64,000 nucleotides of DNA from an uncultured Planctomycetia bacterium. Lineage in GTDB: Bacteria > Omnitrophota > Gorgyraeia > Tantalellales > Tantalellaceae. A program made the translations under genes and the position numbers. This document shows, piece by piece, positions 6,376-24,770 of this stretch. Under the pieces are notes generated by a model. That model ran no database searches. It was given only the letters and a program-made list of their open reading frames with translations, and was not told the origin of the DNA. Numbering within the stretch: the stretch's first letter is position 1; each line of letters opens with the position of its first letter. Location: the NCBI GenBank assembly GCA_964421015.1, contig CAYQUS010000002.1, positions 8,538 to 72,537 of the forward strand, read 5' to 3'.

Positions 6376-6397
6376 TTCACCCTCCTAAAGACACATT

Positions 6398-6520: not shown

Positions 6521-6534
6521 GCGGTCTTGCTACC

Positions 6535-7056: not shown

Positions 7057-7107
7057 TTATCTACCTCCCTTTTTTCAGGGTTCCTTACAAAATATTTTTA
7101 CCGGTTT

Positions 7108-8280
7108 TCAGCGCATGGGAGAAGTACCCTCAAAGGCTTCCCATGTGAGGACGTACCTTTTAACCCAGTCGATATCGGGGTCGTCGCCTTTTGAGAGCCT
7201 TAGAAAATCCCTGAAATGCTCCAGGGCTTTCTTACGGTCAACAACGTGTTCCGCGTATATGTAACCAAGGTTAAAATGCGCGTATGGCTCGTCTGGAGCC
7301 ACTTCCAGGGCCTTTTCGAACTCCACGGCCGCCCTCTTATACTCTTTGTTCTTGGTGTAGAACACTCCCAGGTTATAATGCGTTTTTGCCGTCTGCTTTA
7401 TGAGTTTCGCGTTCTCTTTGGCCAGTTCCGAGAACTTCTTGGGCAGGTCCCTCATTTCCCTCTCCATTTCCCGGTTGGTCTTGACGGCATGTTCGTATTT
7501 TTTCTTGTACCCGGTTATCTCGTGGGAAAGTTTATTTTTATCGGTTTCTATCTTCTCTTTTTCTTTAGCTGTCTTTTCTAAAAGCCCCTGCAGTTTTTTC
7601 ACTTCACCCTCGAGAGCTCTTTTCTCCTGTTTAAGCTGGGATGTCTCGTTCTTGAGGTCCTTTAAAGCTCCTTCGGAAGTGGCTCTTTCATAAGAATCCA
7701 GCGCCTCATCCCTTTCCCTGGCGATATTAGAAGCCTGTGATTCCAGGTCCCTTATAACTCCCGCCAGAGACTCGTTTTTATCCGTAAGCTCCGCTTTCTC
7801 AGCCTCAAGAGCCTCTATCCTCTGTTGGGCCTCTTCCATAACCTCCAGAACCTCGGTGGCTTTATTTCTCTCGTTCAAAAGTATCTTCACCTGGGCGAGA
7901 ATATTATCCCTGTCTCTGCGCAGCGCCGAGTTCTCGATGCGAAGGTCGTCTATGCCCATAGCCATACCTTCGGGCCCCACCTCGCTTAACTGATCTATCC
8001 TTGCAAGGAGACTTTCTTTTTCTTTCTGCAAAAGGTCGTTCTGTTTTTTAAGAGCCTGGTTTTCCTGGCTGAAGTCCTTCTGCGGTTCGGACTTCTCAGG
8101 ACGGGCTTTTACCTGCTCGAGAAGGCTTTCCCTTTCCTCCACTATCTTCTCGTTCCTCCGCAGAAGGTCCTCGTTCTCCCGTTTAAGCTTGGAGACATCG
8201 TAAAAAACATAAGTCCCTCCTGCCGCCAGGGCGAAAAGCGACGCCGACAAGAAACTTATGATTATGCTTGTAGTTTTCAT
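7108..8280 (-). CDS. membrane-anchored coiled-coil protein with C-terminal TPR repeats
   Basis: N-terminal TM anchor. A long heptad-rich E/K/L region follows. The C-terminus holds TPR-like repeats (YNLGVFYTKNKEYKRAAVEFEKALEVAPDEPYAHFNLGYIY). Confidence 0.6.
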   Translation of the reverse strand: MKTTSIIISFLSASLFALAAGGTYVFYDVSKLKRENEDLLRRNEKIVEERESLLEQVKARPEKSEPQKDFSQENQALKKQNDLLQKEKESLLARIDQLSEVGPEGMAMGIDDLRIENSALRRDRDNILAQVKILLNERNKATEVLEVMEEAQQRIEALEAEKAELTDKNESLAGVIRDLESQASNIARERDEALDSYERATSEGALKDLKNETSQLKQEKRALEGEVKKLQGLLEKTAKEKEKIETDKNKLSHEITGYKKKYEHAVKTNREMEREMRDLPKKFSELAKENAKLIKQTAKTHYNLGVFYTKNKEYKRAAVEFEKALEVAPDEPYAHFNLGYIYAEHVVDRKKALEHFRDFLRLSKGDDPDIDWVKRYVLTWEAFEGTSPMR

Positions 8281-8304
8281 TTTTGCCTTCGGGTATTACC
8301 CGCC

Positions 8305-10119
8305 TCACATATACGGCTTTATCCTTACTTCGGGCTCGCTTACGGCGCCTGTAACTTCTTCCGGCTCCTTAGCGGCATCCGCCAAAGACCCGCCATCACC
8401 GTCTTTTTTGCTTCTTATGGGAGCGTAATCTTCATAGTCCTTCCCTATCTTATCGAACTCCCTTTCGTTGCCTGTATCCAGAGTGTCGTCATACGCCACA
8501 TGAGGAGTCATCATGACAAGTAGTTCGGTCCTTTCCGTCTTGTCGCCGCCTTCCTTAAAAAGGAAACCCAGAACCGGTATTTTGCTGAGATATGGGATGC
8601 CTTCCGAGTCCGAGCTCTTCTCTTCTTTTCTAAGCCCGCCTATTATCACGGTATGCCCGTCTTTCACCATTACCGTAGTTTCCGCCATTGATGTGTCGAT
8701 TATGGGTATCTTGTTATTGGTCGGAGTTATAAGATACGAGACAACACTCGAGATCTCGGGCTTTATCCTCATTGTGATGTAGCCTTCCTCGTTAATGGTA
8801 GGCGTCACCGCTATCTGTATCCCGACATCGACGAACTGCACATCTTCGGCGATGGTGCTTGTCGCCTGTCCGGTAGTGGTGGTGGTCGTTACATACGCCT
8901 GGCGTTCACCCACGTGTATCTTGGCCTCGTGATTATTCACTACCGAAAGCTTGGGATTGGAAAGTATCTGTGTTCTCCCGAGCGTCTGGAGATATTTTAC
9001 CAGAACATCATAGTCCCTTTTCCCGGTAACTGAACCGATATGCATGGTGCCTGGCGAGATCTTTCCTGCCGTGGGAGGCGTCTGCGGATAAGCTCCTATG
9101 TCCGAAGGCATAAAGCCTTCCCTGAACTGGTTGCGGGAAGCCCATGTCCCGGTCCAGTCCGCCACGGCGGTTGCCCCTTTCATCACGCTGAAGGGTACGG
9201 ACCCGAAATACATCATGCCGAACTGCGACCCTATATCAACGAGCCCTTCCCACTCTATTCCCTGGGTCATCTGATCGGAAAGTTTGACCTTTATTATCTT
9301 GACGTCTATAAGAACCCTTTTCGTTTTCTGGTCGAGTGCTTTTATCAGAGTCTCTATTTCGGCCATCCTCTCGGGAAGAGCCTGAATTATGACCTGGTTG
9401 GACCTTTCGTCAGCTCTTATGGAACCTACCTTTTTGGCGTCAAGCTGTTCCTTGAGTTGCTCCGTAACCTCTGTGGCGTTGGCGTATTCCAGGTTAAAGA
9501 CCTTCACCGTATTCCTCTGCTCGAGCGACGCCATGGCCTTTTCCATCTCCTTTATCGTTTCCGGAGTGTCCATAACTACCGCGGTCCCGGAATCCGGCTC
9601 CACCAGCACCCTTCCTATTTCGCTTTTAAGGGTATCCAGAAGAGAAAACACCTGCTCCGGGATGGCGTATTGTATCCGGAACATCTTGACTTCCCTGATA
9701 TCGTCGAACCTTTTACCGAAAAGAGCGCGGTACTCGGCCTCGGTCATTATGTTGTATATCTCGCCGGGCTTTGAATACGCCAAGCCGTTGGACCTCAGCA
9801 TGACGTCGAATATGTCCTTTACCGGAACGTTCTCCACCCTCAAGGAAACTCGCCCCGTAACGTTCTTGGTCATTACAAGGTTCATGCTCGCTCTCTGCGA
9901 GAGATACTGAAGAGCGTCTACCACCTCTATGTTCCTCAGGTCAAGCGATATCCTCGCGTCCATTCCGCCGGCAAGAGGCTCAAGATTGTTGACAGACTCC
10001 TCGGTTATGCCCGACGGTGTCTGGGTAGAAAGGGTCTCCTCTCCCGTAAGGCCCTGCCCCCCCACGGAAAGCGCGACAGAAAAAAGAAACACGAATAAAA
10101 ATAGTCCTGTCCTCTTCAC
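8305..10119 (-). CDS. secretin (GspD/PilQ/MshL family outer-membrane channel)
   Basis: Signal peptide. N0/N1-like domains (ISLDLRNIEVVDALQYL...). C-terminal secretin domain (RQAYVTTTTTTGQ..., PIIDTSMAETTVMVKDGHTVIIGGL..., IPYLSKIPVLGFLFK). Confidence 0.85.
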   Translation of the reverse strand: MKRTGLFLFVFLFSVALSVGGQGLTGEETLSTQTPSGITEESVNNLEPLAGGMDARISLDLRNIEVVDALQYLSQRASMNLVMTKNVTGRVSLRVENVPVKDIFDVMLRSNGLAYSKPGEIYNIMTEAEYRALFGKRFDDIREVKMFRIQYAIPEQVFSLLDTLKSEIGRVLVEPDSGTAVVMDTPETIKEMEKAMASLEQRNTVKVFNLEYANATEVTEQLKEQLDAKKVGSIRADERSNQVIIQALPERMAEIETLIKALDQKTKRVLIDVKIIKVKLSDQMTQGIEWEGLVDIGSQFGMMYFGSVPFSVMKGATAVADWTGTWASRNQFREGFMPSDIGAYPQTPPTAGKISPGTMHIGSVTGKRDYDVLVKYLQTLGRTQILSNPKLSVVNNHEAKIHVGERQAYVTTTTTTGQATSTIAEDVQFVDVGIQIAVTPTINEEGYITMRIKPEISSVVSYLITPTNNKIPIIDTSMAETTVMVKDGHTVIIGGLRKEEKSSDSEGIPYLSKIPVLGFLFKEGGDKTERTELLVMMTPHVAYDDTLDTGNEREFDKIGKDYEDYAPIRSKKDGDGGSLADAAKEPEEVTGAVSEPEVRIKPYM

Positions 10120-10820
10120 TTAAGCTCCACGGTGTCTTCCCCGTACCGCAATACCACCCTGTCTTTCAGTATCTGCTCGACCTTTACCTCTCCTATCATC
10201 TGTCCTTCTCTTACGAAAAAAGTCCTGAACGCTTTTGAGTCCTCTATCAGCGCGTCGGGCTTTTCCGACCAGGATATGCCTACAAGCCTGAGGTCCTGCG
10301 TCATCTCGGTTATGGCCGGTACCGGGCTGTATCTGGTCTCCCTTTCCACCGGAACCTCGGGTTCGGGTTCCGGGGCCTTGTATCCCATGCGGAAAATGTT
10401 CCGTTCCGCGGTCTTTTTCAGATAGTATTCCTCTCCTTTGTCGTCCGAAAAAGGTTTTGCGGAGAAATCAAACCCGCTTTTCTCGTACCGCCTGGCCTCC
10501 AGATCCTCCATCCTGTCCGAATAGTTCAAAAGATAAGAAAAATCTGCGATAGCGTAAGAGGCCGCCAGAAGCGCCCCGAAAAAAAGAAACCTGTTTATCA
10601 GGTTCTTTTCCGCGAGCCGCTTAAGCCCCGCGGGGCTGAAAACCTTCTTAAGGTTCCCCGTTAAAAAAAAAAACCTTTCCCTCAGGACGGCCGCCGAAAA
10701 AAGCGGCGACGAGCCCCTCCGGACCGCTCTAGCCCTCATTTTTAACTCATTCGGCCCTTCCGGGTTCTCTATAAGGCTTAACAGCTGTTTTTCTGAGGTA
10801 ATAGGCTTTCTCTGTACCAT
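10116..10820 (-). CDS. bitopic membrane protein, possible GspC/PilP-like secretin partner
   Basis: Single TM segment (FLFFGALLAASYAIADFSYLL) and a periplasmic beta-rich C-terminus. Position between the ExeA-like ATPase gene and the secretin gene. Its end overlaps the secretin start by 4 nt. The start may be Met28 (~10739). Confidence 0.45.
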   Translation of the reverse strand: MVQRKPITSEKQLLSLIENPEGPNELKMRARAVRRGSSPLFSAAVLRERFFFLTGNLKKVFSPAGLKRLAEKNLINRFLFFGALLAASYAIADFSYLLNYSDRMEDLEARRYEKSGFDFSAKPFSDDKGEEYYLKKTAERNIFRMGYKAPEPEPEVPVERETRYSPVPAITEMTQDLRLVGISWSEKPDALIEDSKAFRTFFVREGQMIGEVKVEQILKDRVVLRYGEDTVELK

Positions 10821-11656
10821 CCCGATTGTTTCTCCTCGTCTATAAGTTCGCGTATCAGCTCGGCATCCACCGCCATCTTGCTTGTCAGTATCAGCCTCTT
10901 AAGGGCCTTGTGGCAAAGCATTATTATCCTGCGGGGATATCCCTTTGAGTATTGATGTATCTCCCTTACCGCCTCCTCCAGAAATATGCGCATGCTCGAG
11001 GTATACCCTCCCTGCCTTACCCGGAACTCTATTATCTCCCGCGTTTCCTCGAGGTCAAGCGGGTTAAGAGTGTATTTGAAACTTATTCTGTCCAGGAAAT
11101 TCGGTATATCGACTATTTTAGCGTGCAGTTCGAGCTGCCCCATCAGCACTATCTGCAAAAGCTTGAACTTATTTGTCTCGAAATTCAGGAAGACCCTCAG
11201 GACCTCGAGCGAACTTTCGCTGAGTTTCTGAGCCTCGTCTATTATCAGCGTCACCGTTTTGTTTTCCGTAACCCCTTTTTTAAAAAGGAACTTCTCGAGG
11301 GATTCCCTCATATCCATTACCGTGGGCTCTGCGCCCGCGGGCCAGGTTTCGCATTCTATGTCCAGATTCCTCAAAAGCGATCTCAGGAAGGACTTCTCGT
11401 CTTCGAAAGAAGGATCGAGTATAAAGTGAAAAATAAAATCCTCGCGCATTTTAAGTTCCTGGATAAGTTTCCGGGAAAGGGTTGTTTTTCCCGTCCCCAC
11501 ATCGCCCAGGATCACCGAAAGCCCTCTTTTAAGCCTCAGGTCTATGAGCACATTATTGAGCGCGGCCTCGTGTTCCTTTGAAAGATAAAAGAACTCCGGG
11601 TCGGGACTTGTCGAAAAAGGCTCTTTTTCAAAACCCAGTATCTTGTAGTAGCTCAT
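10778..11656 (-). CDS. ExeA/GspA/MshM-like AAA ATPase
   Basis: Walker A motif GDVGTGKTT in an ExeA-like context (SYYKILGFEKEPFSTSPDPEFFYLSKEHEAALNNV...). Confidence 0.8.
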   Translation of the reverse strand: MSYYKILGFEKEPFSTSPDPEFFYLSKEHEAALNNVLIDLRLKRGLSVILGDVGTGKTTLSRKLIQELKMREDFIFHFILDPSFEDEKSFLRSLLRNLDIECETWPAGAEPTVMDMRESLEKFLFKKGVTENKTVTLIIDEAQKLSESSLEVLRVFLNFETNKFKLLQIVLMGQLELHAKIVDIPNFLDRISFKYTLNPLDLEETREIIEFRVRQGGYTSSMRIFLEEAVREIHQYSKGYPRRIIMLCHKALKRLILTSKMAVDAELIRELIDEEKQSGWYRESLLPQKNSC

Positions 11657-12730: not shown

Positions 12731-12829
12731 CAAGCCGGCATTAAACCCCTGATTGACTTAGCCATTCACGGTTGTTATAATGTGTGGGGTTTTATCCGGG
12801 ATTTTACAGAAAAACCGGCAATCAGGACC

Positions 12830-12906
12830 GGGAAGTAGCGCAGCCTGGCTAGCGCACCTGCTTTGGGAGCAGGGAGTCGTGGGTTCGAATCCCACCTTCC
12901 CGACCA
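12830..12906 (+). tRNA. tRNA-Pro (anticodon TGG)
   Basis: Cloverleaf folded by hand. Anticodon loop cttTGGga. CCA encoded. Confidence 0.8.
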
Positions 12907-12969
12907 GTTTTTATTTATCCGCCAAGTTACTCGAGTTTTTTGCTTGTTTTTTTGTTTGCTTGCGTTTCA

Positions 12970-13053
12970 GCGGGCGTGGCGGAATTGGCAGACGCGCTAG
13001 CCTTAGGAGCTAGTGGTTTTACCGTGGGGGTTCGAGTCCCTTCGCCCGCACCA
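12970..13053 (+). tRNA. tRNA-Leu (anticodon TAG), long variable arm
   Basis: Acceptor stem gcgggcg/cgcccgc. Anticodon loop ctTAGga. CCA encoded. Confidence 0.8.
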
Positions 13054-13155
13054 TTTTTTGCCCGGGCTCTTTTCCGGGTTGAAATGCGCTGTGTTTTATG
13101 TTTTACTGTTTTTGTTTTTAGGGTTTTTGGGTAAGATCGTGTTCTTTAAAAAGTT

Positions 13156-13232
13156 GCGCCCGTAGCTCACTTGGATAGAGCATCTGCCTTCTAAGCAGAG
13201 GGTAGCAGGTTCGAATCCTGCCGGGCGCGCCA
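13156..13232 (+). tRNA. tRNA-Arg (anticodon TCT)
   Basis: Acceptor stem gcgcccg/cgggcgc. Anticodon loop ctTCTaa. CCA encoded. Confidence 0.8.
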
Positions 13233-13280
13233 TGATCTGAATTTCGCTATCGCGAAATTCACCCGAAGGACCGATTGTTC

Positions 13281-13338
13281 GAGGTCGAGGTGACTGGCAA
13301 CACCATCGCTTTTTAATTGTAAGGTGGTGCCTGTCACC
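13281..13338. repeat. REP-like palindromic unit, inverted copy, between tRNA-Arg and tRNA-His
   Basis: gaggtcgaggtgactggca-loop-ggtggtgcctgtcacc. Confidence 0.55.
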
Positions 13339-13369
13339 AAAGTGTCTGTATCTGTAGATGTACATCGGT

Positions 13370-13446
13370 GGTGGGCGTAGCTCAGCTGGTAGAGCGCCTG
13401 ACTGTGGCTCAGGTTGCCGCGGGTTCAAATCCCGTCGCTCACCCCA
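13370..13446 (+). tRNA. tRNA-His (anticodon GTG) with an encoded G-1
   Basis: Anticodon loop ctGTGgc. An extra 5' G pairs with the discriminator C. CCA encoded. Confidence 0.75.
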
Positions 13447-13514: not shown

Positions 13515-14294
13515 ATGGGGTTCTTTTCGGTCGTAAGCCTTTGGAAGCTTTTTGCCGGCACCGTGCTCATATCGGTCTTGTTCTATGAGATAGGCTTTAA
13601 GTTCGGGAAATTCAGATGTTCTGTTTCCCGCGATACAAAAGACGCTCACATCGGCACTATGATAGGCTCGACATTCGGACTTCTGGCCTTTCTTCTGGCC
13701 TTTACTTTCGGCATAGCATCGTCCCATTTTGACGCGAGAAAAACAGCTTTCCTCGAAGACACCAATTCCATAAGATCGGTCTACCTCAAATCCAGGCTGC
13801 TGCCTGAACCAGCAAGAACAAAGATCAAAGAACTTTTGAAAGATTACATCGATATACGCCTCAGGATGGCCCATACAACTTCCCCAAAAGAGCTCCGGGA
13901 GCTGCTTTCCGATTCCGAAAAGATCCACGACCAGTTATGGTCCGAAGCGGTGTCGGCGGAAATAAATGCCACAGGGGCCAGCTCTTCCTGGCTTTTCACC
14001 GACAAATTAGATGAGATGATCGCCAAGCATTTTACACGTATCGCGGTCGCCTTAAGACCCCGCATTCCGGGCACTATCTGGATAGTTCTCTACGTTGTCG
14101 CGTTGCTGAGCATGTCGGCGGCCGGTTACCAGTCCGGCCTTAGCGGCGCGCGCGGCTCTTTTGTTTTCCTGATATCCTGTGTGGCGTTTTCTCTTATTCT
14201 TGTTCTGATCGCGGATCTCGACCGGCCTAAACAGGGTTTATTCAAGGTCAATCAGCAGCAGCTAGCTGATCTCAGGAACAGGATCGCATCTTGA
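13515..14294 (+). CDS. hypothetical integral membrane protein (N- and C-terminal TM segments, DUF-type)
   Basis: 259 aa with hydrophobic helices at both ends and a soluble central region. No confident family assignment. Confidence 0.55.
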   Translation: MGFFSVVSLWKLFAGTVLISVLFYEIGFKFGKFRCSVSRDTKDAHIGTMIGSTFGLLAFLLAFTFGIASSHFDARKTAFLEDTNSIRSVYLKSRLLPEPARTKIKELLKDYIDIRLRMAHTTSPKELRELLSDSEKIHDQLWSEAVSAEINATGASSSWLFTDKLDEMIAKHFTRIAVALRPRIPGTIWIVLYVVALLSMSAAGYQSGLSGARGSFVFLISCVAFSLILVLIADLDRPKQGLFKVNQQQLADLRNRIAS

Positions 14295-14398: not shown

Positions 14399-14433
14399 TT
14401 TGTCGCCATAGCTCCGGCCGGTGGTATAATATG
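14399..14433 (+). promoter_or_regulatory. putative sigma70-type promoter with an extended -10 (TGgTATAAT)
   Basis: ttgtcg-N19-tggtataat lies about 20 nt upstream of the 14451 ATG. Confidence 0.3.
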
Positions 14434-14450: not shown

Positions 14451-14714
14451 ATGAATATCAGGAAAGCCTCGTGTTTTATCGTTATTCTGGCTTTAGCGTT
14501 TATGATCCAGGGTCCCATCGCTCTGGCCGCGGATCCTTTTGAACTGACGATCCAGTTATTCTACGAACACGGGGAAGATAAGAACATATATTACGAGTCC
14601 ATAAATCCGGTTATAGAGATCGGGGGCGGCCCTGTACGCCCTTTCAAAGTGGTTTTAAAAAATACTTCCTCGAGCCCCCGGCAAAACCAAGGAATTCGAG
14701 ATAATCCTGACTGA
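14451..14714 (+). CDS. small secreted protein, possibly frameshifted (continues in another frame to ~14841)
   Basis: Signal peptide MNIRKASCFIVILALAFMIQGPIALA. After the C5/A6 homopolymers at ~14660-14680 the +1 frame continues as ...KTKEFEIILTEREWNNAFKLIKQGSSKVRARASYKNGSKMIYSDYYTLVLKT. Confidence 0.4.
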   Translation: MNIRKASCFIVILALAFMIQGPIALAADPFELTIQLFYEHGEDKNIYYESINPVIEIGGGPVRPFKVVLKNTSSSPRQNQGIRDNPD

Positions 14715-14977: not shown

Positions 14978-17900
14978 ATGACTGTACATTTCCTCTGCCG
15001 ATCAGCGCGCGCAAGTTTTAACCGCTTGAAAAAAGCTGTTTCACTATCATTGGCTTTTTGCCTGCTTTGTCCCGGCCTTTCTCTGGGGAAAGACCAATAT
15101 CCCGTTCCAAGCTCAGATCGCGCTGTCCATGATACCGCAAACTTGTCCGCGGCAAACACTATAGAAATTCCTTACGGACTCGGTTTTATAACCGACAGAT
15201 GGGACGGCGGAGCTGATCCCTCGGGATATACAGTGATCCACATACAGGATGCTCACTGTAATTACGACGCGCAAAAGGCTGTAGCCGGAATAATATCGTA
15301 CCTAAGCAAGCGTTACGGCGCATATGTCGTTAATCTGGAGGGAGGCGAGGGTCCTTATGATACGTCCCTTTTCTCTCACCTTGGTTCCGGAGACCTCGCT
15401 CAAAAAGCCGCCGACATCTTGCTTGAAAAGGGGCTTTTGAACGGCGCCGAGTACGCCGCTGTGTCAGAAGGCGGAGTTTTCCTCTGGGGGATCGAAGACC
15501 CCTTTCTTTACTCAAAAAACCTTTCGGCGTACAGGGAATCGGTTTCGGCAAAAGAAGAATCCGGCAGACTGCTTAGCGTGTTAAATGACGAGGTTTCCAA
15601 AGCCCAAAAAAGTGTTTTTTCGGAAAAACTTCTTGAGATCGAAAAATTCAAGGTCGGTTATCGCTCGGGGACCCTGGAACTAAAGGACTATTTCACCTAT
15701 CTCTGGTCTTTAGCCGAAGTTTCCGGCATAGACGTGTCTCTGTATCCCCTTTCTCAAAAAATGGCCGGAATACTGGAAAAGGAACGCGGTATAGATTTCG
15801 AAAAAGCCGGAACGGAGAGAACAATGCTTGTGGAGCTTCTTGGAGAACATCTCCCCGGGGAAGATGTTCTATCCATAGCCCAGGCGGCTGAAAATTTTCG
15901 TCTCGGGAAGATCTCCGAAGCGTCTTTCCATGGATATCTTTACGCCAGGTCAGCCATACTGGGAGAGAGATTTGAAGATTTCCGGGAACTCTCAAAATAC
16001 ATCTCTTATTCCGCGGACCACGGCGCTATCGACGACACATTTCTCACGGAAGAACTCCCGTCCCTTGAAAACTCTATTCTGGACCTTTTCGCGAGCACGC
16101 CTGAGGAGAAAGAACTTTTATTCTTTGCGCGGCTTCTTGAAACAGCGGGCAGAATACTTTCTTTTACCGTAACCGAAAAAGATTTCAATTTTTACAGAAC
16201 CCACTCTTCCCGCTTACAGGACCTGGGCAGTTTTGTGGAAAACTTTATTCCCTGCGGCTCCACGTCAGAGGGGGCTGGAAGCGCGGCCCGCGATCTTTCC
16301 GGGTACACGGCAAAAGCGGCCTTGTTCTATGAATACTCCTTACTTCGCGACGAAGCCTTTCTTGGGAATATGATATCGTCCCCCCTGTCACGGACGGCCG
16401 TTCTTGTTACCGGAGGGTTCCACACAAAAAACCTTGCCCGCGTCTTCCGGGAAAAAGGTATAGCATACGTAACGGTAATGCCTTCTTTCAGGAACGCGGA
16501 GGGATACGCCTCTCCGTATTTCAGCGTTCTGGAAGGCAGCAACGGCTTTTTCCCCATATCCGCAGCTCCCGGAGCCTATTCGCTGCAGGTGCCGAGCGCT
16601 CTGGCGCCGATAAAAGATGCCCTGACAGAGGCTGATCTGGAAGAATACGAAGTCAACGCCTATGTAACCGGGGAAATAGCGCGCGGAAAAAAACTGATAA
16701 TATCCATGGACGGCGGTAAGACCTTGGAAATAGGCTCGGGAACAACTGAACGTCTCTCGCTGGACGAACTTCTTCACAGGGTCCACGAGGTGTACATAGA
16801 CCGCATAATGGCCCGGGGCGATTTTACGGAAGTTTCGGACGAAGACCGCGACGACGCCTGCGGCATCGCCCTTGAGGTCACACAAGACCATTCTATCCAA
16901 CGCCAGATAATAGATCTTCACCGCGGCGAAAATGCCGAAGGCAAGAAGCTGCACATGCAGTTCTCCTCGGGGCTCGGCAGAACCAAAATACTGGAACACT
17001 CAGGAGGCATGGGAGTATCCATAAGCTCCGGGCTTTACACAATAGAAGAAGTGCGCCGGGCTCTGGTGCATGGTATTATCTCGGGATTCCTTGACGACCA
17101 CCGCATGGCGGACCTTATAACCGAAGCTCTTCTTAAAGACGACATTTCCCTCGCCTCTCGGATGTTTTCCTCGGCCATGAAAGGCAAACCGGCTATAGCC
17201 GTGTGGGAGAGATCCGACCTTGTCCGTCGGTCCGGAAAACGAGACTATGCCGACAGGCTCAGCGATCTTCAGGCTCTTATGAGTTCCCACAGCCTTATTC
17301 GCACGGAAAAAGGCACCTGGTATGAGTCTCAGGGACTCCGCTTTTACCGGGGCCTGTGGCAGAAAAACCATCAGATAGCCCAGGGCATAAAAGTCCACAT
17401 AGACGCTACTGACGACACGGGGAAAATAGATATCGATCTTCTTTCCGGCGCGGTGTCGCTTCTTGAAAAATGGGGGTTCCCTTTCAAAATATCCGAACCT
17501 TTCGGCCAAAAGCTGGTCCGGACACACGAAGACTCCTCTTCTTACGACCAGGAAGGCAAGACGGTTGTGATCTGGCTTGTCGACATCGAGGGGGCCCCAT
17601 TGAAGGATTGGAACAAGATAGAAGATTTCCTATCTTCGCTGGAGTCATATCTGTCAAAAAGCCCGAAAACAAAAACACATTTTTCGCATGACGGCACAAC
17701 CAACGATCAGCTTTACGGCGACTCCGGGAGGCTTGGATACCGTTTCGGGTCTTACAACTCCGGGGTTGTCATAGTGCCCTCAGAAAAAGGCCTGGAGCAG
17801 ATACGCCCGGACGACCATCACAAACACGACAGCGAACTTATCCGACATACCGGCCTCTACGGCAGCGTTCCCGAGGAACCTTTCGAGGTGCAAGCCGCTA

Positions 17901-20900
17901 AAAAAATGTCGCTCACTCCCGTTAAAAAAGAAACAAATGTAGTGGCCTTTTTAAACAGGATAATAAGACTGGCCGGACAGAAAACGACCATAACGGACAA
18001 CACTAATTTCCGCACCGCCATAAGAGGACGCTCGGACCAGATCTTCGGGATAAAGCTCGAAAGCGACTCCAAGAAAGACGATATTCCCTTACACGGAAAC
18101 TGGCTTGCGGGAATGAACTTCTCGCGGCTGGAAACCTACGATCCCGAAAGCCCATCGGACTGGGTCATAAAGTTCGGTCAGTTCGCCGATGGAACTTCGG
18201 CAATAGCAAGCTGGCTCAAAGAGTGGAAAATAAACTCTCTCGGCATGAAGGAGCTGTGCGCCCATGACCCTGTCAGTTTCCTCTCTTCTATAGGTCACGA
18301 GGACCAGGCCAAAAAACTGGAAAAGGCCTGGCTCGAGGGAGACCATGGAACAGTGAACAATATCATCAATACGTTTTTCTGCGTAAAGGATAAAGGCCTT
18401 TTTACGGCAGCCCCCATGGTGAAAGGCGGGTTCACCCTCAATAAGATCCTGCATGTTCTCTATCCCGAGATCCACGCCGGGCCGGATGTTAAGACCCCGG
18501 AAGAAGCCGAACGTTTTCAGGCGGAATGCGCCGAGATAAAGCGCCAGCTTGACGCGCTGTTCGCCCGAAAAACACCCGACCAGAGAAAAGAAATACTTTC
18601 GTCCTGGGCTCAGAGAATACATTCCATAGCCGGCAAACTTCACCGGAACGGCATAGTCCACCGGGACCTTAAACCCGATAACATCCTTATAAACATAGAA
18701 AAACAGGACATACGGATAATAGATTTTGAGACCGCGATATTCACCGAAAAAAGAGGAGAAAATATAATCATCCCGGAAGTAAAAAAAGCCGCGACTCCCG
18801 GATACGCGCATTTTTATCAGTTCAATGAGGACATCTACACGGCACTTAGAAGCGTCGGGGAAAAAGCGCTCTGGGCATACCTGAAAGCTCAGGACGTATT
18901 CGCCCTCGAAGTCATATCGGACGAGCTGGTCAACGGAGACACTCCTTTTGACGCGGCGGAATGGGAGACTTTTTCGTCTAAAGGGATGGCCCATCGGATG
19001 ATAAAGAACGGGCATGACCTTATCCTGGCCAGGAACATGGTAGACCTAGCCAGAGCGCATCAGACAGGTAATTATGAAAAACTGCTCGCCCAAAAAAGAA
19101 AAGAATACCAGTCTTTTTCCACCGGACCGCTTCTGGGAGCATACGAGGAAGCCTCCCGCCTTAAATATGACCTTCAGGCCCTTAGAAAAAAAGTGGAACT
19201 CTCCAATTCGCTGAAAAATCAGGCCGAGGAAAAAGAATACTCTTCCTGGGACGCTCTTGAGACTTTGCGGGAGGAGCTTTCCGCCGTAAGCGCGAGGGAA
19301 AAGTTCCTTTCCGAGAAGATAAACCAGCTTGAAATACGCAAAAGGTCTGGCTCCGATCTTTCTTCTTTGCGCGCGGAATTTTCCGAGATCAGGCATAAAA
19401 GAAGTGTTATCGCCTCGAGGGCTCAGGCCGCCGAGGAAAAATACTTCGCGTCTAAAGAAGAGGCCGATGCCGCCCGGAAAAACTCGCAGGCCGCCCGGCT
19501 GGAGTACGATGTTCTTGCCGGGAAATATGCTTCCTCCCAGTCTTTGCTGAGCCAGATGGAGAGGAGAAAGAACAACCTGGAACGCTTTCTTTCTCTGGTA
19601 GAATGGCTGTCGGAAGAAAAACCCGAAATGACCTCTCCTCTCTTGCCCGACGGGAACATCTCTCTTCTCGGCGGGGGGATCTCGTGGGTAGGCGGGGATA
19701 ATTTTACGGGGGGAACGCCGATGGTTAGTTCTCAGGACCTTGACCCTGTGTTCATCGGCGCGGAAAAAACGCTGTCCCTTTTAAGCAAAAGGGATGACGG
19801 GCTCCCTGAACTTCCCGTCGGCATCAGCTCTGAAGGAAAAGTTTTCCAGACTCTGGATTTTATTGACCTTGAGGGAAAACGGATAAACATAAGGCCGCTT
19901 AACGGATCTGTCCTGGCTTCGATTTCGGAAGACGGCAAAACCGCGGCCGTGAACTGGAACCTCATAAACGTCTTGCTCGCCCTTGCCGAGACCCCGGATT
20001 CCCCTGAAAAGATAACGGGAATGAAAAAGATCCTTTCAGACGCTCTTCTCCCCGCCGATATAGGAGAAAAGATCTATTCCGATTTTTCGAAAGTTTCGGG
20101 TCTTTCCTCAGCCGAAAAATACATGATAGCCGGCCGCGTTCTTCTTCATGAGATAACGGAAGCTTACCTCATACAATCCCAGCTGGAAGACGCTCAAGGT
20201 GCGGCTGAAAACCCCGTCGACAGGTCCAGGGCGCATTTCTCGGCCATGGTCGCGGAACTTTACGCGGGAAATACTTTAAAAATAAGGTCTGTCCTGGGGC
20301 CCATCCTGGCTTCGCGCGACCTTAACGAGGCCCGCGGGGTGATCTCATCGCGCGTATCCTCCGGGAAAAAGGATTTTCCGGCCGCGTCCCGGGAAGATTT
20401 TAAAGAAACTGCCGAAAAAATTTCCGGGAAATGTTATCAGGACCTCTTTTTCGGGAAAAACTCTTACATCTTCGTTTTGGGAGCCGAGCCATCCGTCTCT
20501 GAGGGTACTCTTCAGGAGGCTATGTCTCTAGGGCCATCAGTTTCTTCGTCCGCCGGCGCGGCGCGAAGTTTCGCGGCAAAGCAGAATTTCGGAAAGGTCT
20601 CCATATCCCATCATACCGGTAAAGACCAGGCGCTATCCGCCCTTGTTTCCATGGCCTCTCTCCCGGCCGGAAAAAACCGCGTGCATTGCTCTATAAGCCG
20701 GACCCTGCTTTCGGAGATGGACGCTGATCCCTCCGTACTCGCGGCGATTAACGCCTCTTCCGGAGCTAAAACATATTCCTCTGTTTCGGGATTTCTCTCT
20801 TCTTCCGCCATAACCGACATCATAGACGACAGGATTGAGCCGCACGGCGGAGACACGGCCAAAGTACTGCCCATGCCTTACAATGAGGCTTCTCTCCATG

Positions 20901-21199
20901 GCATAGCCCGTCTTAACCTTTCGCATCTGCTTTCCGAATTCCGCGACGAGGACCTTGACGCCGCGAACCCCGATTTCATGAGGGCGGTGAACATGGTGGC
21001 GCTTACAGTCGCCCTCATGTCCGGGAGAAATGACGTGGATTCCATAGCTTTTTCCCTTCTCTCTCTGGCCGGGAATAATCCCAGGGAATTCTTTGTGAGC
21101 GGGAACCTCAGCATTTTCCTCCCGCCCGCGGTTCCGAGGAATCACGAAGAAATACGGGAGGATTATCTTTCAAAGGCAGCTTTGCTCCGATATCTGTAA
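14978..21199 (+). CDS. giant (2073 aa) predicted secreted multidomain protein with an embedded eukaryotic-like Ser/Thr protein kinase domain and coiled-coil regions
   Basis: One uninterrupted 6.2 kb ORF. Signal-peptide-like N-terminus. Kinase catalytic loop HRDLKPDNIL (~18655-18690), then IIDFETAIF (DFG-like, reads DFE), ATPGYAHF (resembles the APE motif) and DVFALEVISDELVNGDTPF (subdomain IX-like). Long heptad and charged coiled-coil stretches lie downstream. Confidence 0.75.
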   Translation: MTVHFLCRSARASFNRLKKAVSLSLAFCLLCPGLSLGKDQYPVPSSDRAVHDTANLSAANTIEIPYGLGFITDRWDGGADPSGYTVIHIQDAHCNYDAQKAVAGIISYLSKRYGAYVVNLEGGEGPYDTSLFSHLGSGDLAQKAADILLEKGLLNGAEYAAVSEGGVFLWGIEDPFLYSKNLSAYRESVSAKEESGRLLSVLNDEVSKAQKSVFSEKLLEIEKFKVGYRSGTLELKDYFTYLWSLAEVSGIDVSLYPLSQKMAGILEKERGIDFEKAGTERTMLVELLGEHLPGEDVLSIAQAAENFRLGKISEASFHGYLYARSAILGERFEDFRELSKYISYSADHGAIDDTFLTEELPSLENSILDLFASTPEEKELLFFARLLETAGRILSFTVTEKDFNFYRTHSSRLQDLGSFVENFIPCGSTSEGAGSAARDLSGYTAKAALFYEYSLLRDEAFLGNMISSPLSRTAVLVTGGFHTKNLARVFREKGIAYVTVMPSFRNAEGYASPYFSVLEGSNGFFPISAAPGAYSLQVPSALAPIKDALTEADLEEYEVNAYVTGEIARGKKLIISMDGGKTLEIGSGTTERLSLDELLHRVHEVYIDRIMARGDFTEVSDEDRDDACGIALEVTQDHSIQRQIIDLHRGENAEGKKLHMQFSSGLGRTKILEHSGGMGVSISSGLYTIEEVRRALVHGIISGFLDDHRMADLITEALLKDDISLASRMFSSAMKGKPAIAVWERSDLVRRSGKRDYADRLSDLQALMSSHSLIRTEKGTWYESQGLRFYRGLWQKNHQIAQGIKVHIDATDDTGKIDIDLLSGAVSLLEKWGFPFKISEPFGQKLVRTHEDSSSYDQEGKTVVIWLVDIEGAPLKDWNKIEDFLSSLESYLSKSPKTKTHFSHDGTTNDQLYGDSGRLGYRFGSYNSGVVIVPSEKGLEQIRPDDHHKHDSELIRHTGLYGSVPEEPFEVQAAKKMSLTPVKKETNVVAFLNRIIRLAGQKTTITDNTNFRTAIRGRSDQIFGIKLESDSKKDDIPLHGNWLAGMNFSRLETYDPESPSDWVIKFGQFADGTSAIASWLKEWKINSLGMKELCAHDPVSFLSSIGHEDQAKKLEKAWLEGDHGTVNNIINTFFCVKDKGLFTAAPMVKGGFTLNKILHVLYPEIHAGPDVKTPEEAERFQAECAEIKRQLDALFARKTPDQRKEILSSWAQRIHSIAGKLHRNGIVHRDLKPDNILINIEKQDIRIIDFETAIFTEKRGENIIIPEVKKAATPGYAHFYQFNEDIYTALRSVGEKALWAYLKAQDVFALEVISDELVNGDTPFDAAEWETFSSKGMAHRMIKNGHDLILARNMVDLARAHQTGNYEKLLAQKRKEYQSFSTGPLLGAYEEASRLKYDLQALRKKVELSNSLKNQAEEKEYSSWDALETLREELSAVSAREKFLSEKINQLEIRKRSGSDLSSLRAEFSEIRHKRSVIASRAQAAEEKYFASKEEADAARKNSQAARLEYDVLAGKYASSQSLLSQMERRKNNLERFLSLVEWLSEEKPEMTSPLLPDGNISLLGGGISWVGGDNFTGGTPMVSSQDLDPVFIGAEKTLSLLSKRDDGLPELPVGISSEGKVFQTLDFIDLEGKRINIRPLNGSVLASISEDGKTAAVNWNLINVLLALAETPDSPEKITGMKKILSDALLPADIGEKIYSDFSKVSGLSSAEKYMIAGRVLLHEITEAYLIQSQLEDAQGAAENPVDRSRAHFSAMVAELYAGNTLKIRSVLGPILASRDLNEARGVISSRVSSGKKDFPAASREDFKETAEKISGKCYQDLFFGKNSYIFVLGAEPSVSEGTLQEAMSLGPSVSSSAGAARSFAAKQNFGKVSISHHTGKDQALSALVSMASLPAGKNRVHCSISRTLLSEMDADPSVLAAINASSGAKTYSSVSGFLSSSAITDIIDDRIEPHGGDTAKVLPMPYNEASLHGIARLNLSHLLSEFRDEDLDAANPDFMRAVNMVALTVALMSGRNDVDSIAFSLLSLAGNNPREFFVSGNLSIFLPPAVPRNHEEIREDYLSKAALLRYL

Positions 21200-23109: not shown

Positions 23110-23958
23110 CTATATCACCCCTGAGGCTGACCGCAGTGAATGACAGGAGAGCGCCACCGATACCGGAAGGCCGGCTATGTGAGTGGGCCCTGTTTCCACA
23201 TTTACGGCCAGAGCCGTTGTCCTGCCTCCGAGACCCATTACCCCTATCCCGAGAGCGTTCACCTTTTTGAGTATTTTTTTCTCAAGCGCGCTTGTCCTTG
23301 CCGTAGCGCGCCTCCCGGAAACAGGGCCAAGCAGAGCTTTCTTGGCCATTAAAGCGCATGAATCCATTGTCCCGCCTATCCCTACTCCCAGCACATAAGG
23401 AGGACAGGCATCCGGTCCGGCCAAGGCCACGGTCTTTACGCAAAAATCCACTATCGCGTCTTCTCCTGCCGTGGGGTTCAGCATGGTTATTCTTCCCTTA
23501 TTCTCGCTTCCGAAACCTTTCGGCATTACCGTTATCTTTATCTCCCGGCCCTTCACTATGTCCACATGCTTAACGGCCGGAGAGTTGGTATTCTTGTATT
23601 TCCTCGTGATCGGGTCTGTAACCAGCGATTTCCTGAAGTTGTATTCCGTGTACGCTTTTTCCACTCCGCTGTCGATAGCCCCGGAAAAACTTCCTCCGAC
23701 TATCTTTACATCCTGCCCCAATTCAATAAAGACAGCGGCGAGGCCCGTATCCTGGCATAGCGGCAGTTTCTCTTTTTCCGCTATACCGGCATTCTCGATG
23801 AGGATCTTTATCATGCTCCTTGAAACAGGGGAAGTCTCGACGCGGAGAGCCGTCTTAAGAGCTTTCAGGATGTCGGGACGCATCACGACATTAGCCTTGT
23901 AACACAGCTCTTTGACCTTTTTCTCTATGTCCAGGATGTGGACCCGCCGGGTCGTCAT
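23110..23958 (-). CDS. class I fumarate hydratase alpha subunit (Fe-S hydro-lyase)
   Basis: Track ORF 23110..24045. The start is set at Met30 (MTTRRVHIL), which gives an ATGA overlap with the murI stop. Motifs CQDTGLAAVF...GVGIGGTMD. Confidence 0.75.
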   Translation of the reverse strand: MTTRRVHILDIEKKVKELCYKANVVMRPDILKALKTALRVETSPVSRSMIKILIENAGIAEKEKLPLCQDTGLAAVFIELGQDVKIVGGSFSGAIDSGVEKAYTEYNFRKSLVTDPITRKYKNTNSPAVKHVDIVKGREIKITVMPKGFGSENKGRITMLNPTAGEDAIVDFCVKTVALAGPDACPPYVLGVGIGGTMDSCALMAKKALLGPVSGRRATARTSALEKKILKKVNALGIGVMGLGGRTTALAVNVETGPTHIAGLPVSVALSCHSLRSASGVI

Positions 23959-24770
23959 AGAACCGCCTTTTTTACATCCACGTTCTCTTTGAGGAACATT
24001 CCTGATATTTTCTTGAATTTTTCGGGAGCGTCGCTGACGTAACACCTCATTTTTCCCTTTCTTCCGCGTCTTTCGGCCGAAAGGCCGTTTGATCGAAGGA
24101 CCATTTTAAGTTCCTCCGCCACGGCGCGGGATGAATCCACAAGACTTACGCCCTTCATTACGGAAGATATGACCTTCTTCAGCATGGGATAATGGGTACA
24201 TCCGAGGATCAGGGTATCAATTCCTCTTTTTCTAAGAGAAAACAGATATTTTTCGGCTATTTTCTCTGTTATTTCCCCGGAAATCATCCTGTTTTCTACA
24301 AGGGGCACAAAAAGAGGGCAGCTTTCCGAGAACAGCCTGAAATCACCCTTCTGTGTTTTTTCAAGCTCTCTGTCGTAGGCCCCGCTTGCCACGGTAGCCT
24401 CTGTGCCTATAACCCCTATTCTGCGGTTCTTAGATATGCCGACGGCCTTTCTTATGCCGGGGCCTATAACCCCGACTACGGGCATATCGTAATTTTTCTG
24501 AAGGAAAGCTCTGCTGAAACTCGACGCCGTATTGCAGGCAATAACAACCGCTTTGACCTTTTTACCCGCCAAAAAGTCCACTATTTCTTTCGAGAACCTG
24601 TTTATGGTATCCCTGGATTTGTTCCCGTACGGTACACGGGCCGTATCCCCGAAGTATATTATGTCCTCCATGGGAAGCATTTCCCGTATGCTTCTCGCCA
24701 CGGTAAGCCCCCCTACCCCGGAGTCAAAAACCCCTATAGGTCTGTTGTTTGGCCTCTCCATGAGCCACAT
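23955..24770 (-). CDS. murI: glutamate racemase
   Basis: GVFDSGVGGLTV...ACNTAS...LGCTHYP. Confidence 0.9.
   Translation of the reverse strand: MWLMERPNNRPIGVFDSGVGGLTVARSIREMLPMEDIIYFGDTARVPYGNKSRDTINRFSKEIVDFLAGKKVKAVVIACNTASSFSRAFLQKNYDMPVVGVIGPGIRKAVGISKNRRIGVIGTEATVASGAYDRELEKTQKGDFRLFSESCPLFVPLVENRMISGEITEKIAEKYLFSLRKRGIDTLILGCTHYPMLKKVISSVMKGVSLVDSSRAVAEELKMVLRSNGLSAERRGRKGKMRCYVSDAPEKFKKISGMFLKENVDVKKAVL

Follow-up and report, generated by a model that had tools for sequence, protein, structure and literature searches.

A predicted exported 2073-residue protein from a large, mainly Omnitrophota family combines a putative RamC_N-type lyase with a DFE-type protein kinase

The window (the whole stretch of DNA analysed, 64,000 nucleotides) contains, at positions 14978-21199 of the plus strand, a complete open reading frame that runs from an ATG start codon through 2073 codons to its stop codon, with no internal stop and no tandem repeats within the gene. 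The product can be aligned end to end (query residues 4-2073, 41% identity) with its sole ortholog, P0001 (L002), which supports an intact reading frame and a real gene, in line with the single 6.2 kb ORF of the original prediction. Upstream of the gene lies a cluster of tRNA genes (Pro(tgg), Leu(tag), Arg(tct) and His(gtg); 12829-13446, plus strand), and between this cluster and the giant gene are a bestrophin-like gene (13515-14294) and an 87-residue ORF bearing a signal peptide (14451-14714). The region 3-10 kb upstream of the giant gene contains a secretin/AAA_22 cluster as well as a gene for a PPIase. The only genome with an orthologous gene is an Omnitrophota MAG, in which tRNA-Pro, tRNA-Leu and tRNA-His again stand immediately upstream; there, the gap between tRNA-His and the gene is just 170 bp, the 87-residue ORF is missing and the secretin neighbourhood is not retained. 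Ham1, RNase PH, fumarase and racemase genes follow downstream at both loci. The proximity of the tRNA genes had been read as an integration hotspot. With the locus conserved on both sides in the MAG of the ortholog, and with GC, GC3 and codon usage of the gene matching those of its flanks, this reading is not supported, and the giant gene is not a recent insertion.

The N-terminus (residues 1-37; 14978-15088, plus strand) has the features of a Sec-type signal peptide, in line with the original prediction: inspection of the sequence reveals a basic n-region and a hydrophobic core that spans 18 residues, and the predicted cleavage site, which follows S-L-G and precedes K, has small residues at -3 and -1. 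No further membrane segment is predicted, and the protein is probably exported. Residues 55-545 (approximately 490 residues; 15140-16612, plus strand) form the head that defines the protein family described below. In its AF2 model (pLDDT 86.3, pTM 0.81), an alpha/beta core is split by an all-helical insertion of approximately 270-290 residues (residues ~175-444, 15500-16309, plus strand; helices at model positions 126-417 according to the AF2 secondary structure). Marginal EF-hand-like profile matches (centrin and calmodulin, E 0.002-0.1) were noted for this insertion.

No Pfam or NCBIfam model attains its curated cut-off on the head, and TIKI proteins were not retrieved by head profile searches against PDB sequences. 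Sub-threshold Pfam matches to ChaN were found in 12 of 37 family members, together with single matches to TraB and Erythro_esteras, and, among Foldseek matches aligning the head core, those of highest probability are EreC, Bcr135 and HopBA1, all with weak scores (E 0.1-0.8, TM 0.2-0.3). The candidate active-site residues are D91-x-H93, E121, R457 and H482; the last three and H93 are invariant across 238 sequences, D91 is found in 234 of the 237 sampled family members, and the spacing of these residues agrees with that in RRSP, Bcr135 and EreC. From these sub-threshold Pfam and weak Foldseek matches, the head appears to be like the TIKI/erythromycin-esterase/ChaN-type hydrolase fold, with the [D/E]-x-H...E...R...H pattern intact, and it may act as a hydrolase, possibly in processing or anchoring. 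It would share with the TIKI superfamily (RRSP of MARTX, EreC/Bcr135, ChaN, Tiki/TraB/PrgY) the parallel-sheet core, the Glu 28 residues after [D/E]-x-H, and the His 25-29 residues past the Arg, as well as recurring ChaN, TraB and Ere matches, all under curated thresholds. It differs from that superfamily in its helical insertion, in having Asp instead of Glu as the first acidic residue, and in being the constant N-terminal part of multi-enzyme proteins that number in the thousands.

Residues 671-765 (16988-17272, plus strand) constitute a short module that is common to P0005 and P0130 (phmmer E 1.7e-6 and 2.3e-7) and for which no PDB sequence relative was found. The segment that follows, residues ~794-960 (17357-17857, plus strand), is a putative phospho-Ser/Thr lyase domain of the RamC_N, or LanKC/LanL, type. 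The pre-kinase region of the query itself gives no direct match to RamC_N, and the link goes via P0120 and P0024, both of which contain a RamC_N domain without a kinase. An HMM built from the pre-kinase regions of the query, P0001 and P0002 matches residues 940-1087 of P0120 (E 2.2e-8), a stretch that corresponds to Pfam RamC_N with an E-value of 2.4e-17; in hhalign, the pre-kinase region aligns with the P0024 RamC_N region with a P-value of 0.004, and P0001 shows a weak RamC_N match of its own (E 0.085). The putative catalytic residues K805, H807, K837, D910 and R922 are the counterparts of K65, H67, K94, D152 and R163 in the ThurKC lyase, the roles of which have been described (PMC10604976). 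Four of them (H807, K837, D910 and R922) are invariant in all five aligned lyase domains, while K805 is present in four, its equivalent in P0002 being Ile. The domain would have lyase activity, which may be coupled to that of the kinase. The presence of a RamC_N-type domain directly before the kinase had been overlooked in the earlier reading.

The kinase domain proper occupies residues ~1058-1340 (18149-18997, plus strand). The Hanks-type core described in the original prediction was located, with the motifs HRDLKPDN (residues 1228-1235), IDFETA (1248-1253), TPGYAHF (1273-1279) and AQDVFAL (1304-1310), and Pfam Pkinase matches residues 1191-1331 with 52.1 bits versus a cut-off of 31.7, spanning only profile positions 85-204 of 263, that is, the C-lobe. 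The best NCBIfam kinase matches are LanL, MAD6 and LanKC. Among the assigned residues (K1065, E1082, H1228-R-D1230, K1232, N1235, D1249-F-E, H1277 and D1306), the beta3 Lys K1065, the candidate alphaC Glu E1082, the HxDxKPxN motif (residues 1228-1235), the Mg-binding D1249 and the alphaF D1306 are invariant in the query and P0001 as well as in the two kinase copies of P0002, the second of which lacks a lyase. Alignment with canonical kinases placed K1065 in register with the VAIK Lys, which had been considered unclear; the Gly-rich loop was not found, and no profile reaches the N-lobe. The residue after DF varies among relatives (DFE, DFG, or DAE in the second P0002 copy), so that only the Asp is constrained at this motif, and DFE is likewise found in ThurKC (D382-F383-E384; PMC10604976), a LanKC kinase of experimentally shown activity. 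In addition, no other part of this fast-evolving protein is as well conserved as the kinase, which shows 50-60% identity to the ortholog versus 41% overall. The AF2 model of residues 790-1390 is poor (pLDDT 52.8, pTM 0.35), and Foldseek with this low-confidence model returned almost only kinases (E-values 5e-3 to 5e-2), the sole full-length alignments being those to ThurKC (8sam_B, 612 columns) and SalKC (9ugq_B, 590 columns). When the lyase-kinase alignment was used as a profile against the PDB, generic kinases were retrieved, not LanKC. Judged by its conserved residues, the kinase looks active, with a DFE motif.

Beyond the kinase, the long coiled-coil segments reported earlier reduce to one coiled-coil-like spacer, residues ~1387-1540 (19136-19597, plus strand), the presence of several such segments not being supported by what is a crude analysis of heptads and composition (heptad bias, 34-39% E/K/R/Q and 2% P/G within the spacer). 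This spacer is the part least conserved relative to the ortholog (22% identity) and gives weak SMC matches. Residues 1568-1784 (19679-20329, plus strand) are kept in the ortholog, and residues 1700-1781 of this region also match P0116 (phmmer); no PDB sequence relative of the region was found. The conserved C-terminal domain (residues ~1790-2073; 20345-21196, plus strand), likewise with no PDB relative found, also stands at the exact C-terminus of P0004, P0153, P0172 and P0204, and its last ~45 residues (21062-21196, plus strand) make up a family tail motif that ends ...LRYL-COOH. Over the whole protein, a fold was proposed for all but about 750 residues.

The head profile matches 10,301 protein clusters at E<=1e-3, mostly from Omnitrophota and always near the protein N-terminus, and in ~105 blastp matches that have the head alone in common with the query, the shared region sits at the N-terminus. 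A hydrophobic N-terminal stretch, in many cases with A-W-A at its end, is present in 197 of 237 sampled members, and the tail was found by jackhmmer in at least 128 of these 237. The layout of the family is a signal peptide, a constant head of ~490 residues, variable enzyme domains and a conserved C-terminal tail, with a cargo that includes kinase, PPDK, PGM, GGDEF, glycosyltransferase, methyltransferase and Lon domains. The TIKI-like head and conserved tail that define this huge family had escaped the earlier reading, and they go unmentioned in the publications checked on Omnitrophota giant proteins.

The explanation that we favour, and consider reasonably probable, is that the query belongs to this exported, modular and mostly Omnitrophota family, which is very large and uncatalogued, and that it has a TIKI-type head, the conserved tail and, as cargo, a RamC_N/LanKC-type lyase with a competent DFE kinase. 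The original prediction had instead raised the possibility of a secreted effector with a catalytically dead pseudokinase as scaffold, for which one can cite DFE in place of DFG, A-H-F in place of the APE motif, the unrecognisable Gly-rich loop and the restriction of the Pfam match to the C-lobe. The invariance of all locatable catalytic residues in the ortholog and both P0002 copies, the variability after DF, the elevated identity of the kinase region and the DFE of active ThurKC all make a pseudokinase unlikely. Similarly improbable, in our estimate, is a genuine RiPP enzyme, i.e. a synthetase of lanthipeptide-like or dehydrated peptides acting on a dedicated precursor of its own organism. 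The order of lyase and kinase, the presence of DFE and the top-ranking kinase matches in NCBIfam do indicate LanL/LanKC, and the 87-residue ORF lies directly upstream; however, this small ORF carries a signal peptide and is missing at the orthologous locus, the neighbours are housekeeping genes, no LanC-like cyclase was detected (Pfam LANC_like has no match at E<=1), and the LanL and LanKC models cover the kinase part only, with 38.7 and 33.8 bits versus cut-offs of 650 and 575. Moreover, the module lies within an exported 2073-residue protein whose relatives carry unrelated cargo.

It is also rather doubtful that the kinase acts by itself, as a regulatory or effector Ser/Thr kinase of the usual kind, with the RamC_N-like domain merely binding a substrate or phosphopeptide. 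The Ile in P0002, the kinase-free RamC_N domains of P0120 and P0024 and the lyase-free second kinase of P0002 would fit such an arrangement, but all five putative lyase residues are kept in both query and ortholog, and the two domains adjoin in LanKC order. A further possibility, to which we give some weight while thinking it on balance improbable, is that the protein is retained by its producer, in the periplasm or envelope, where it would contribute to an enzyme coat on the cell surface, with no delivery into another cell. The signal peptide with no further predicted membrane segment, the secretin/AAA_22 and PPIase genes upstream and the description of Omnitrophota giant proteins as surface-associated in the literature are all in keeping with this, whereas the cargo of the family requires ATP, NTPs or SAM, which are not expected outside the cytoplasm, and the secretin neighbourhood is not conserved at the orthologous locus. 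The favoured explanation itself has points against it: the poor AF2 model of the lyase-kinase region and its weak Foldseek E-values, the missing Gly-rich loop and N-lobe coverage, the indirect link to RamC_N, the Ile in P0002, the generic kinases in the PDB profile search, the sub-threshold matches behind the TIKI assignment, and the want of an obvious ATP source for an exported kinase.

Compared with lanthipeptide synthetases of class III/IV (LanKC, for example ThurKC and SalKC, and LanL), the query has the same N-terminal RamC_N/OspF-like lyase followed by a Ser/Thr kinase and, as in LanKC, DFE at the DF(G/E) motif and the lyase K-x-H, K, D and R residues. It differs from these enzymes in having neither a LanC-like cyclase domain nor an adjacent precursor gene, in its ~100-residue linker and kinase insertions, in scoring far under the cut-offs of their family models, and in the embedding of the pair behind a TIKI-like head in a signal-peptide-bearing protein. 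ThurKC and SpvC have been described as sharing a lyase fold family and a catalytic residue set (PMC10604976), and the query lyase may be likened to the phosphothreonine-lyase effectors OspF, SpvC and HopA1, which irreversibly remove phosphate from Ser/Thr in target proteins; no direct sequence or structure match of the query to these effectors was obtained. They are small and type III-secreted, and the residues that they attack have been phosphorylated by kinases of the host, whereas the query lyase is fused to a kinase of its own. The Omnitrophota giant proteins (Archaeovorins and related) resemble the query in phylum (judged from best matches), signal peptides and the upstream secretin and PPIase gene, and share the cargo repertoire of its family (PPDK, PGM, glycosyltransferases, methyltransferases and GGDEF). 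They are far longer (>10-30 kaa versus 2 kaa), and the query lacks internal membrane helices and, according to Pfam, a SecA_DEAD or C39 domain. In MARTX and other polymorphic multi-effector toxins, constant ends likewise surround a variable string of enzymatic domains, and MARTX includes a TIKI-family domain (RRSP); there, however, the TIKI domain is cargo and not the constant head, and neither RTX repeats nor a cysteine protease domain were detected by Pfam in the query.

Since a putative lyase with its catalytic residues stands just before the kinase and no cyclase was found, the pair resembles the dehydratase half of LanKC/LanL. In the proposed mechanism, the kinase would phosphorylate its substrate, a peptide or a protein, on Ser/Thr residues, and the adjacent lyase would then strip the phosphate by beta-elimination, leaving dehydroalanine or dehydrobutyrine as an irreversible modification. 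Because ATP for the kinase is not expected outside the cytoplasm, action on the proteins of another cell is suggested, and a role as a secreted effector is plausible.

The giant protein is encoded by a single uninterrupted ORF (14978..21199, plus strand; 2073 aa, to which all residue numbers refer), and both its integrity and the signal-peptide-like character of its N-terminus bear out the original prediction. A basic stretch is followed by an 18-residue hydrophobic core and the residues S-L-G|K, which fit cleavage by signal peptidase I rather than a lipobox; in fact, a lipoprotein signal could be ruled out, as there is no lipobox and the residue preceding the Cys residues is Phe or Leu. The protein has no hydrophobic segment other than the signal peptide. 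Local searches divide the remainder into modules, namely aa 671-765 (common to the homologous proteins P0005 and P0130), a pre-kinase domain at aa 794-948 (common to the homolog P0002), the kinase at aa 1058-1340 (common to the ortholog P0001, and present in two copies in P0002), a coiled coil, aa 1568-1784 and a C-terminal domain. Several long coiled coils had been claimed, of which a crude analysis of heptads and composition supports one stretch only (aa ~1387-1540), and the absence of tandem repeats from the gene excludes a repeat-built adhesin. Profile and sequence searches of PDB sequences returned nothing for aa 546-789, aa 1561-1811 or the C-terminal domain, and no PDB sequence relatives for the regions after the kinase, while neither aa 781-1380 nor aa 1561-2073 brought up anything beyond generic kinases in homolog searches. 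In total ca. 750 residues (aa 546-793, aa 1568-1784 and the C-terminal domain) have no fold assignment.

The Hanks-type kinase core that had been read from the sequence is confirmed by its motifs (HRDLKPDN at aa 1228-1235, IDFETA at 1248-1253, TPGYAHF at 1273-1279 and AQDVFAL at 1304-1310) and by a match to Pfam Pkinase (aa 1191-1331; 52.1 bits, above the gathering score of 31.7), which spans profile positions 85-204 of 263 only, corresponding to the C-lobe half. The best kinase matches in NCBIfam are to LanL (4e-10), MAD6 (5.6e-10) and LanKC (1.3e-8), the first and last being models of class IV and class III lanthipeptide synthetases, and kinase matches among PDB sequences are weak (e.g. PDK1, E 4.5e-5). 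Within H1228-R-D-L-K-P-D-N1235 and D1249-F-E, the H, D, K, N and D residues are invariant across all aligned kinases, and the four closest kinase copies share, without exception, K1065 (in WVIK), E1082 (in WLKEW), H1228, D1230, K1232, N1235, D1249, H1277 and D1306. Alignment with canonical kinases places K1065 at the position of the VAIK lysine, in a stretch outside every profile match, and a low-confidence model has K1065 in a strand (aa 1060-1066) and E1082 in a helix (aa 1072-1088). For the catalytic lysine that had seemed unclear there is thus a probable candidate; for the glycine-rich loop there is none, as GxGxxG is absent upstream of K1065, where the relatives vary and pLDDT is below 50.

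The presence of D-F-E where D-F-G is expected had raised the possibility of a pseudokinase scaffold. D-F is followed by E in the query and in P0001, but by G in the first kinase copy of P0002; the second P0002 copy reads D-A-E. A pseudokinase is rejected, however, because the catalytic residues K1065, D1230 and D1249 are all retained and invariant; only the Gly of DFG is changed, as in ThurKC, a class III lanthipeptide synthetase whose kinase is active with D382-F383-E384 (PMC10604976). An AF2 model of aa 790-1390 (9 sequences) is poor (pLDDT 52.8), and as weak support only, Foldseek searches with it gave top matches that are nearly all kinases (probability up to 1.00, E 5e-3 or weaker), with alignments over all 601 residues obtained solely for ThurKC and SalKC, another class III synthetase.

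A profile of the domain directly upstream of the kinase found nothing but a chance-level helicase match. The domain carries the motifs G-I-K-V-H-I-D, F-K-I-S, G-K-T-V-V-I-W and S-G-R-L-G-Y-R-F-G, and an HMM built from the pre-kinase domains of the query, P0001 and P0002 matches aa 940-1087 of the homolog P0120 (E 2.2e-8), of which aa 927-1081 are recognised as the LanKC-type lyase RamC_N by Pfam (E 2.4e-17). At the equivalent place in P0001 the direct RamC_N match is weak (E 0.085), while an hhalign comparison with the RamC_N region of a further homolog, P0024, places the motifs in register (P 0.004). Residues W794, G803, H807, K837, G860, D910, S916, G917, R922, G924 and P934 are invariant in five lyase domains, and K805 is found in four of the five. 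The ThurKC lyase has the catalytic set K65, H67, K94, D152 and R163, equivalent to K104, H106, K136, D201 and R213 of SpvC (PMC10604976), and K805, H807, K837, D910 and R922 of the query follow this set in order and in approximate spacing. The lyase that characterises LanKC and LanL enzymes is therefore recognisable here through a transitive link to RamC_N via P0120 and P0024, and the kinase with its DFE (aa 1249-1251) follows it directly, in the LanKC/LanL order.

A complete lanthipeptide synthetase would share this lyase-kinase order, but such an enzyme is rejected for the lack of both a cyclase and a precursor. Pfam LANC_like gives no match at E<=1, and the LanL and LanKC models cover the kinase part only, scoring 38.7 and 33.8 bits where 650 and 575 would be required. 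There is also no precursor peptide gene, the neighbours being housekeeping genes and the sole small upstream ORF having a signal peptide and being missing at the orthologous locus. As judged from sequence, what the query shares with LanKC/LanL enzymes is their dehydratase half, and it is not a lanthipeptide synthetase.

A homolog search over 5.8 billion proteins identified a single full-length homolog, P0001 (2139 aa, 41% identity, aligned over aa 4-2073), and 106 more proteins of 1200-3600 aa, nearly all of which match the N-terminal quarter only. By blastp, the common part corresponds to query aa ~60-520 and lies at the N-terminus in every match. The Pfam domains found behind this head are diverse, and include protein kinases, PPDK/PEP-utilising, phosphoglucomutase, GGDEF, metallophosphoesterase and methyltransferase domains, as well as macro, glycosyltransferase, SLT, ABC1, M48, Lon/AAA and SNF2 domains. 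The named sources are mostly Candidatus Omnitrophota, with a few Elusimicrobiota, Firestonebacteria or Auribacterota. An exhaustive HMMER search of 1.84 billion cluster representatives with the head profile gave 10,301 proteins at E<=1e-3 (7,329 at E<=1e-30), and among the best 150 matches the head always starts at residue 3-116, in proteins of 537 to 7683 aa. An N-terminal hydrophobic stretch, often ending A-W-A, is present in 197 of 237 sampled members, and 139 of the 237 have no further membrane-like segment. At the other end, the query closes with a domain of ~285 residues that recurs, again precisely at the C-terminus, in P0001 and in four other homologs (P0004, P0153, P0172 and P0204). 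Its last ~45 residues (ending V-L-R-S-L-COOH) are recovered by jackhmmer from the very C-terminal end of 128 of the 237 members; many of the tail-less members are probably truncated at contig ends. From the distribution of head, tail and signal peptide it follows that the family is built of a signal peptide, a TIKI-like head, variable cargo and a conserved tail.

The RamC_N-type lyase behaves as a mobile cargo module in this family, being combined behind the head with two kinase copies (DFG and DAE) in P0002, with a calcineurin-like phosphoesterase in P0120, and with a weak JAB-like match in P0024. Several MAGs have multiple head-family genes (for instance, loci L003 and L009 lie on one contig, and the genes of P0027 and P0040 are adjacent), and one locus (L015, 56-20110 of CAZNEE010000006) contains a tandem pair of giant ORFs, 3217 and 3394 aa long and on the same strand, of which the second has a TIKI-like head and two kinase-like domains. 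Within the 64-kb window the head occurs only once.

The head (aa 55-545) matches no Pfam (2025) or NCBIfam (2026) model at its curated cut-off. In an alignment of 37 head sequences D, H, E, R, G-G-x-H and P are invariant; H93, E121, R457 and H482 are invariant in 238 family sequences, and D91 is found in 234 of 237. The AF2 model of the head is confident (pLDDT 86.3, pTM 0.81) and shows an alpha/beta core (strands at model positions 20-26, 36-42, 68-71, 119-123, 424-430 and 447-453) interrupted by an insertion that is helical throughout (model positions 126-417), with the conserved residues at, or just beyond, the C-terminal ends of strands and R457 in the helix preceding the fifth strand. The order and spacing D91-x-H93, E121 (+28), R457 and H482 (+25) agree with the 2His/2Glu plus Arg motif of the TIKI superfamily, the first acidic residue being Asp, as seen by comparison with RRSP (E3900, H3902, E3930, R4001, H4030) and Bcr135 (H85, E113) (PMC6254334) and with EreC (E47, H50, E78, R261, H289) (PMC7979712). 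Pfam ChaN (PF04187, 'Tiki superfamily') matches 12 of the 37 members below threshold (best E 4.4e-6, about 24 bits versus a gathering score of 27.7), in the R...GGxH half of the head, and the TraB and Erythro_esteras models each match one member, also below gathering score. The query head itself matches none of these three models, and NCBIfam has no model that matches any member. Removal of the insertion leaves ChaN (11 of 25), TraB and Erythro_esteras as the sole coherent theme. Profile searches of PDB sequences with the full or insert-excised head found no TIKI proteins, and the latter found nothing at all. Foldseek against the PDB likewise gave nothing significant (E 0.1-0.8, TM 0.2-0.3), the core-aligning matches of highest probability being HopBA1 (5t09, 0.63), EreC (6xcs, 0.57) and Bcr135 (3b55, 0.47; also 2rad); Bcr135 and HopBA1 are listed in the TIKI superfamily, and the Ere esterases, to which EreC belongs, share the same active site (PMC6254334). 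Taken together, conserved residues and predicted fold make it reasonably likely that the head is a divergent TIKI-type hydrolase, probably an active one. The helical insertion (15500-16309, aa ~175-444) gives many marginal centrin/calmodulin profile matches over ~125 positions (E 0.002-0.1); these may reflect an EF-hand-like pair of helices in which no Ca-binding loops are obvious, or may be due to chance.

The position of the gene behind a tRNA cluster had been taken as a sign of an integration hotspot. The gene of P0001, on the Omnitrophota MAG contig SLID01000045 (loci L001 and L002 being the same sequence), is preceded by tRNA-Pro(tgg), Leu(tag) and His(gtg), as in the window, and both genes are followed by Ham1, RNase PH, fumarase and racemase in the same order (65-77% identity). 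Between the two giant proteins, identity is highest in the kinase region (50-60%) and lowest in the coiled coil (22%). The comparison with the flanks also argues against insertion, as the GC content (0.512), GC3 (0.566) and codon-frequency distance (0.143) of the gene are all typical of genes in the window. Recent tRNA-linked integration is therefore ruled out by native synteny and composition, and the gene is an old, fast-evolving resident of its locus.

Directly upstream lies an 87-aa ORF (14451-14714, plus strand, possibly to ~14841) with a classic signal peptide (...GPIALA|ADP), preceded by a promoter-like site (14403-14430) and a ribosome-binding site; it may run on in a different frame, as would be expected from a frameshift, and it is missing at the orthologous locus, in which tRNA-His and the giant gene are only 170 bp apart. 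An upstream regulatory RNA was dismissed, as Rfam yields tRNAs only. Between 3 and 10 kb upstream (4783-11656, minus strand) are genes for a protein of 530 aa that ends in a cyclophilin PPIase domain, a TPR protein, a secretin (STN, two Secretin_N and Secretin domains), a 234-aa ORF without Pfam match and an AAA_22 (ExeA/GspA-like) ATPase, an arrangement that recalls the secretion-plus-PPIase loci published upstream of Omnitrophota giant genes; this neighbourhood is absent at the orthologous locus. Elsewhere, a 436-aa ORF (976-2286, minus strand) has an IS200-like Y1 transposase domain at aa 51-146 only, its remaining ~290 residues being unannotated, and at 23110-24770 (minus strand) the ORF listed for the fumarase N-terminal subunit, with its GTG at 24045, shares 91 bp with the racemase ORF; its true start probably lies downstream, because the ortholog aligns from aa 32 only.

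The best-supported reading, in which we infer activity, coupling, substrate and destination, is that of an exported protein whose kinase would place phosphate on Ser/Thr of a substrate, and whose adjacent lyase would eliminate it to leave a dehydro-amino acid. The family as a whole presents a paradox, as kinases and most of the other cargo depend on cytoplasmic cofactors, with ATP-, NTP- or SAM-requiring domains (PPDK, phosphoglucomutase, GGDEF, glycosyltransferases, methyltransferases, Lon/AAA and SNF2) behind Sec-type signal peptides, and the same cofactor difficulty is pointed out in preprints on Omnitrophota giant proteins. Delivery into another cell would resolve the difficulty and would fit the proposed predatory or parasitic lifestyle. 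A bolder proposal, which we regard as rather unlikely, is that Omnitrophota and neighbouring phyla have in these proteins, with their TIKI head and RSL tail, a delivery platform not described before, which takes cytoplasm-type enzymes into host or prey cells. The constant hydrolase head would then act as an autoprocessing or docking protease and the constant C-terminal tail as a secretion or assembly signal, with interchangeable enzymes carried between them as in MARTX and polymorphic toxins; the cargo here would be a self-contained 'protein dehydratase', in which kinase and phospho-lyase would convert Ser/Thr of target proteins irreversibly to dehydro-amino acids without host kinases. Compared with Archaeovorin-type giants, which exceed 30,000 aa and have numerous transmembrane helices and SecA_DEAD, the query is of a different kind, with 2073 aa, no additional hydrophobic segment and no SecA match.

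Taken singly, the elements are of known kinds, be it the Hanks kinase, the lyase of RamC_N type, the TIKI fold or the large size of proteins in Omnitrophota. What appears to be new, from the sequence comparisons, is a cyclase-less lyase-kinase pair in an exported protein and a family-wide head/tail architecture, of which the Omnitrophota giant-protein literature examined makes no mention, although it may be described elsewhere; a literature search combining Omnitrophota and Tiki found nothing relevant. For annotation, where a kinase-like domain of a bacterium has DFE, an adjacent RamC_N lyase should be sought before a pseudokinase is called. A LanKC-type pair that lacks a cyclase and lies behind a signal peptide would carry dehydration chemistry of the lanthipeptide style beyond RiPP biosynthesis, and suggests an effector that itself generates the phospho-substrate and then eliminates the phosphate. 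Omnitrophota are uncultured, ultra-small and probably host-dependent, and their large proteins are a recognised puzzle. A catalytic head and a tail common to more than 10,000 protein clusters give a handle on this puzzle, in that the family becomes definable, with members that can be counted in each genome and related to genes for secretion, and in that both ends of the protein offer concrete targets for biochemistry and structure determination.
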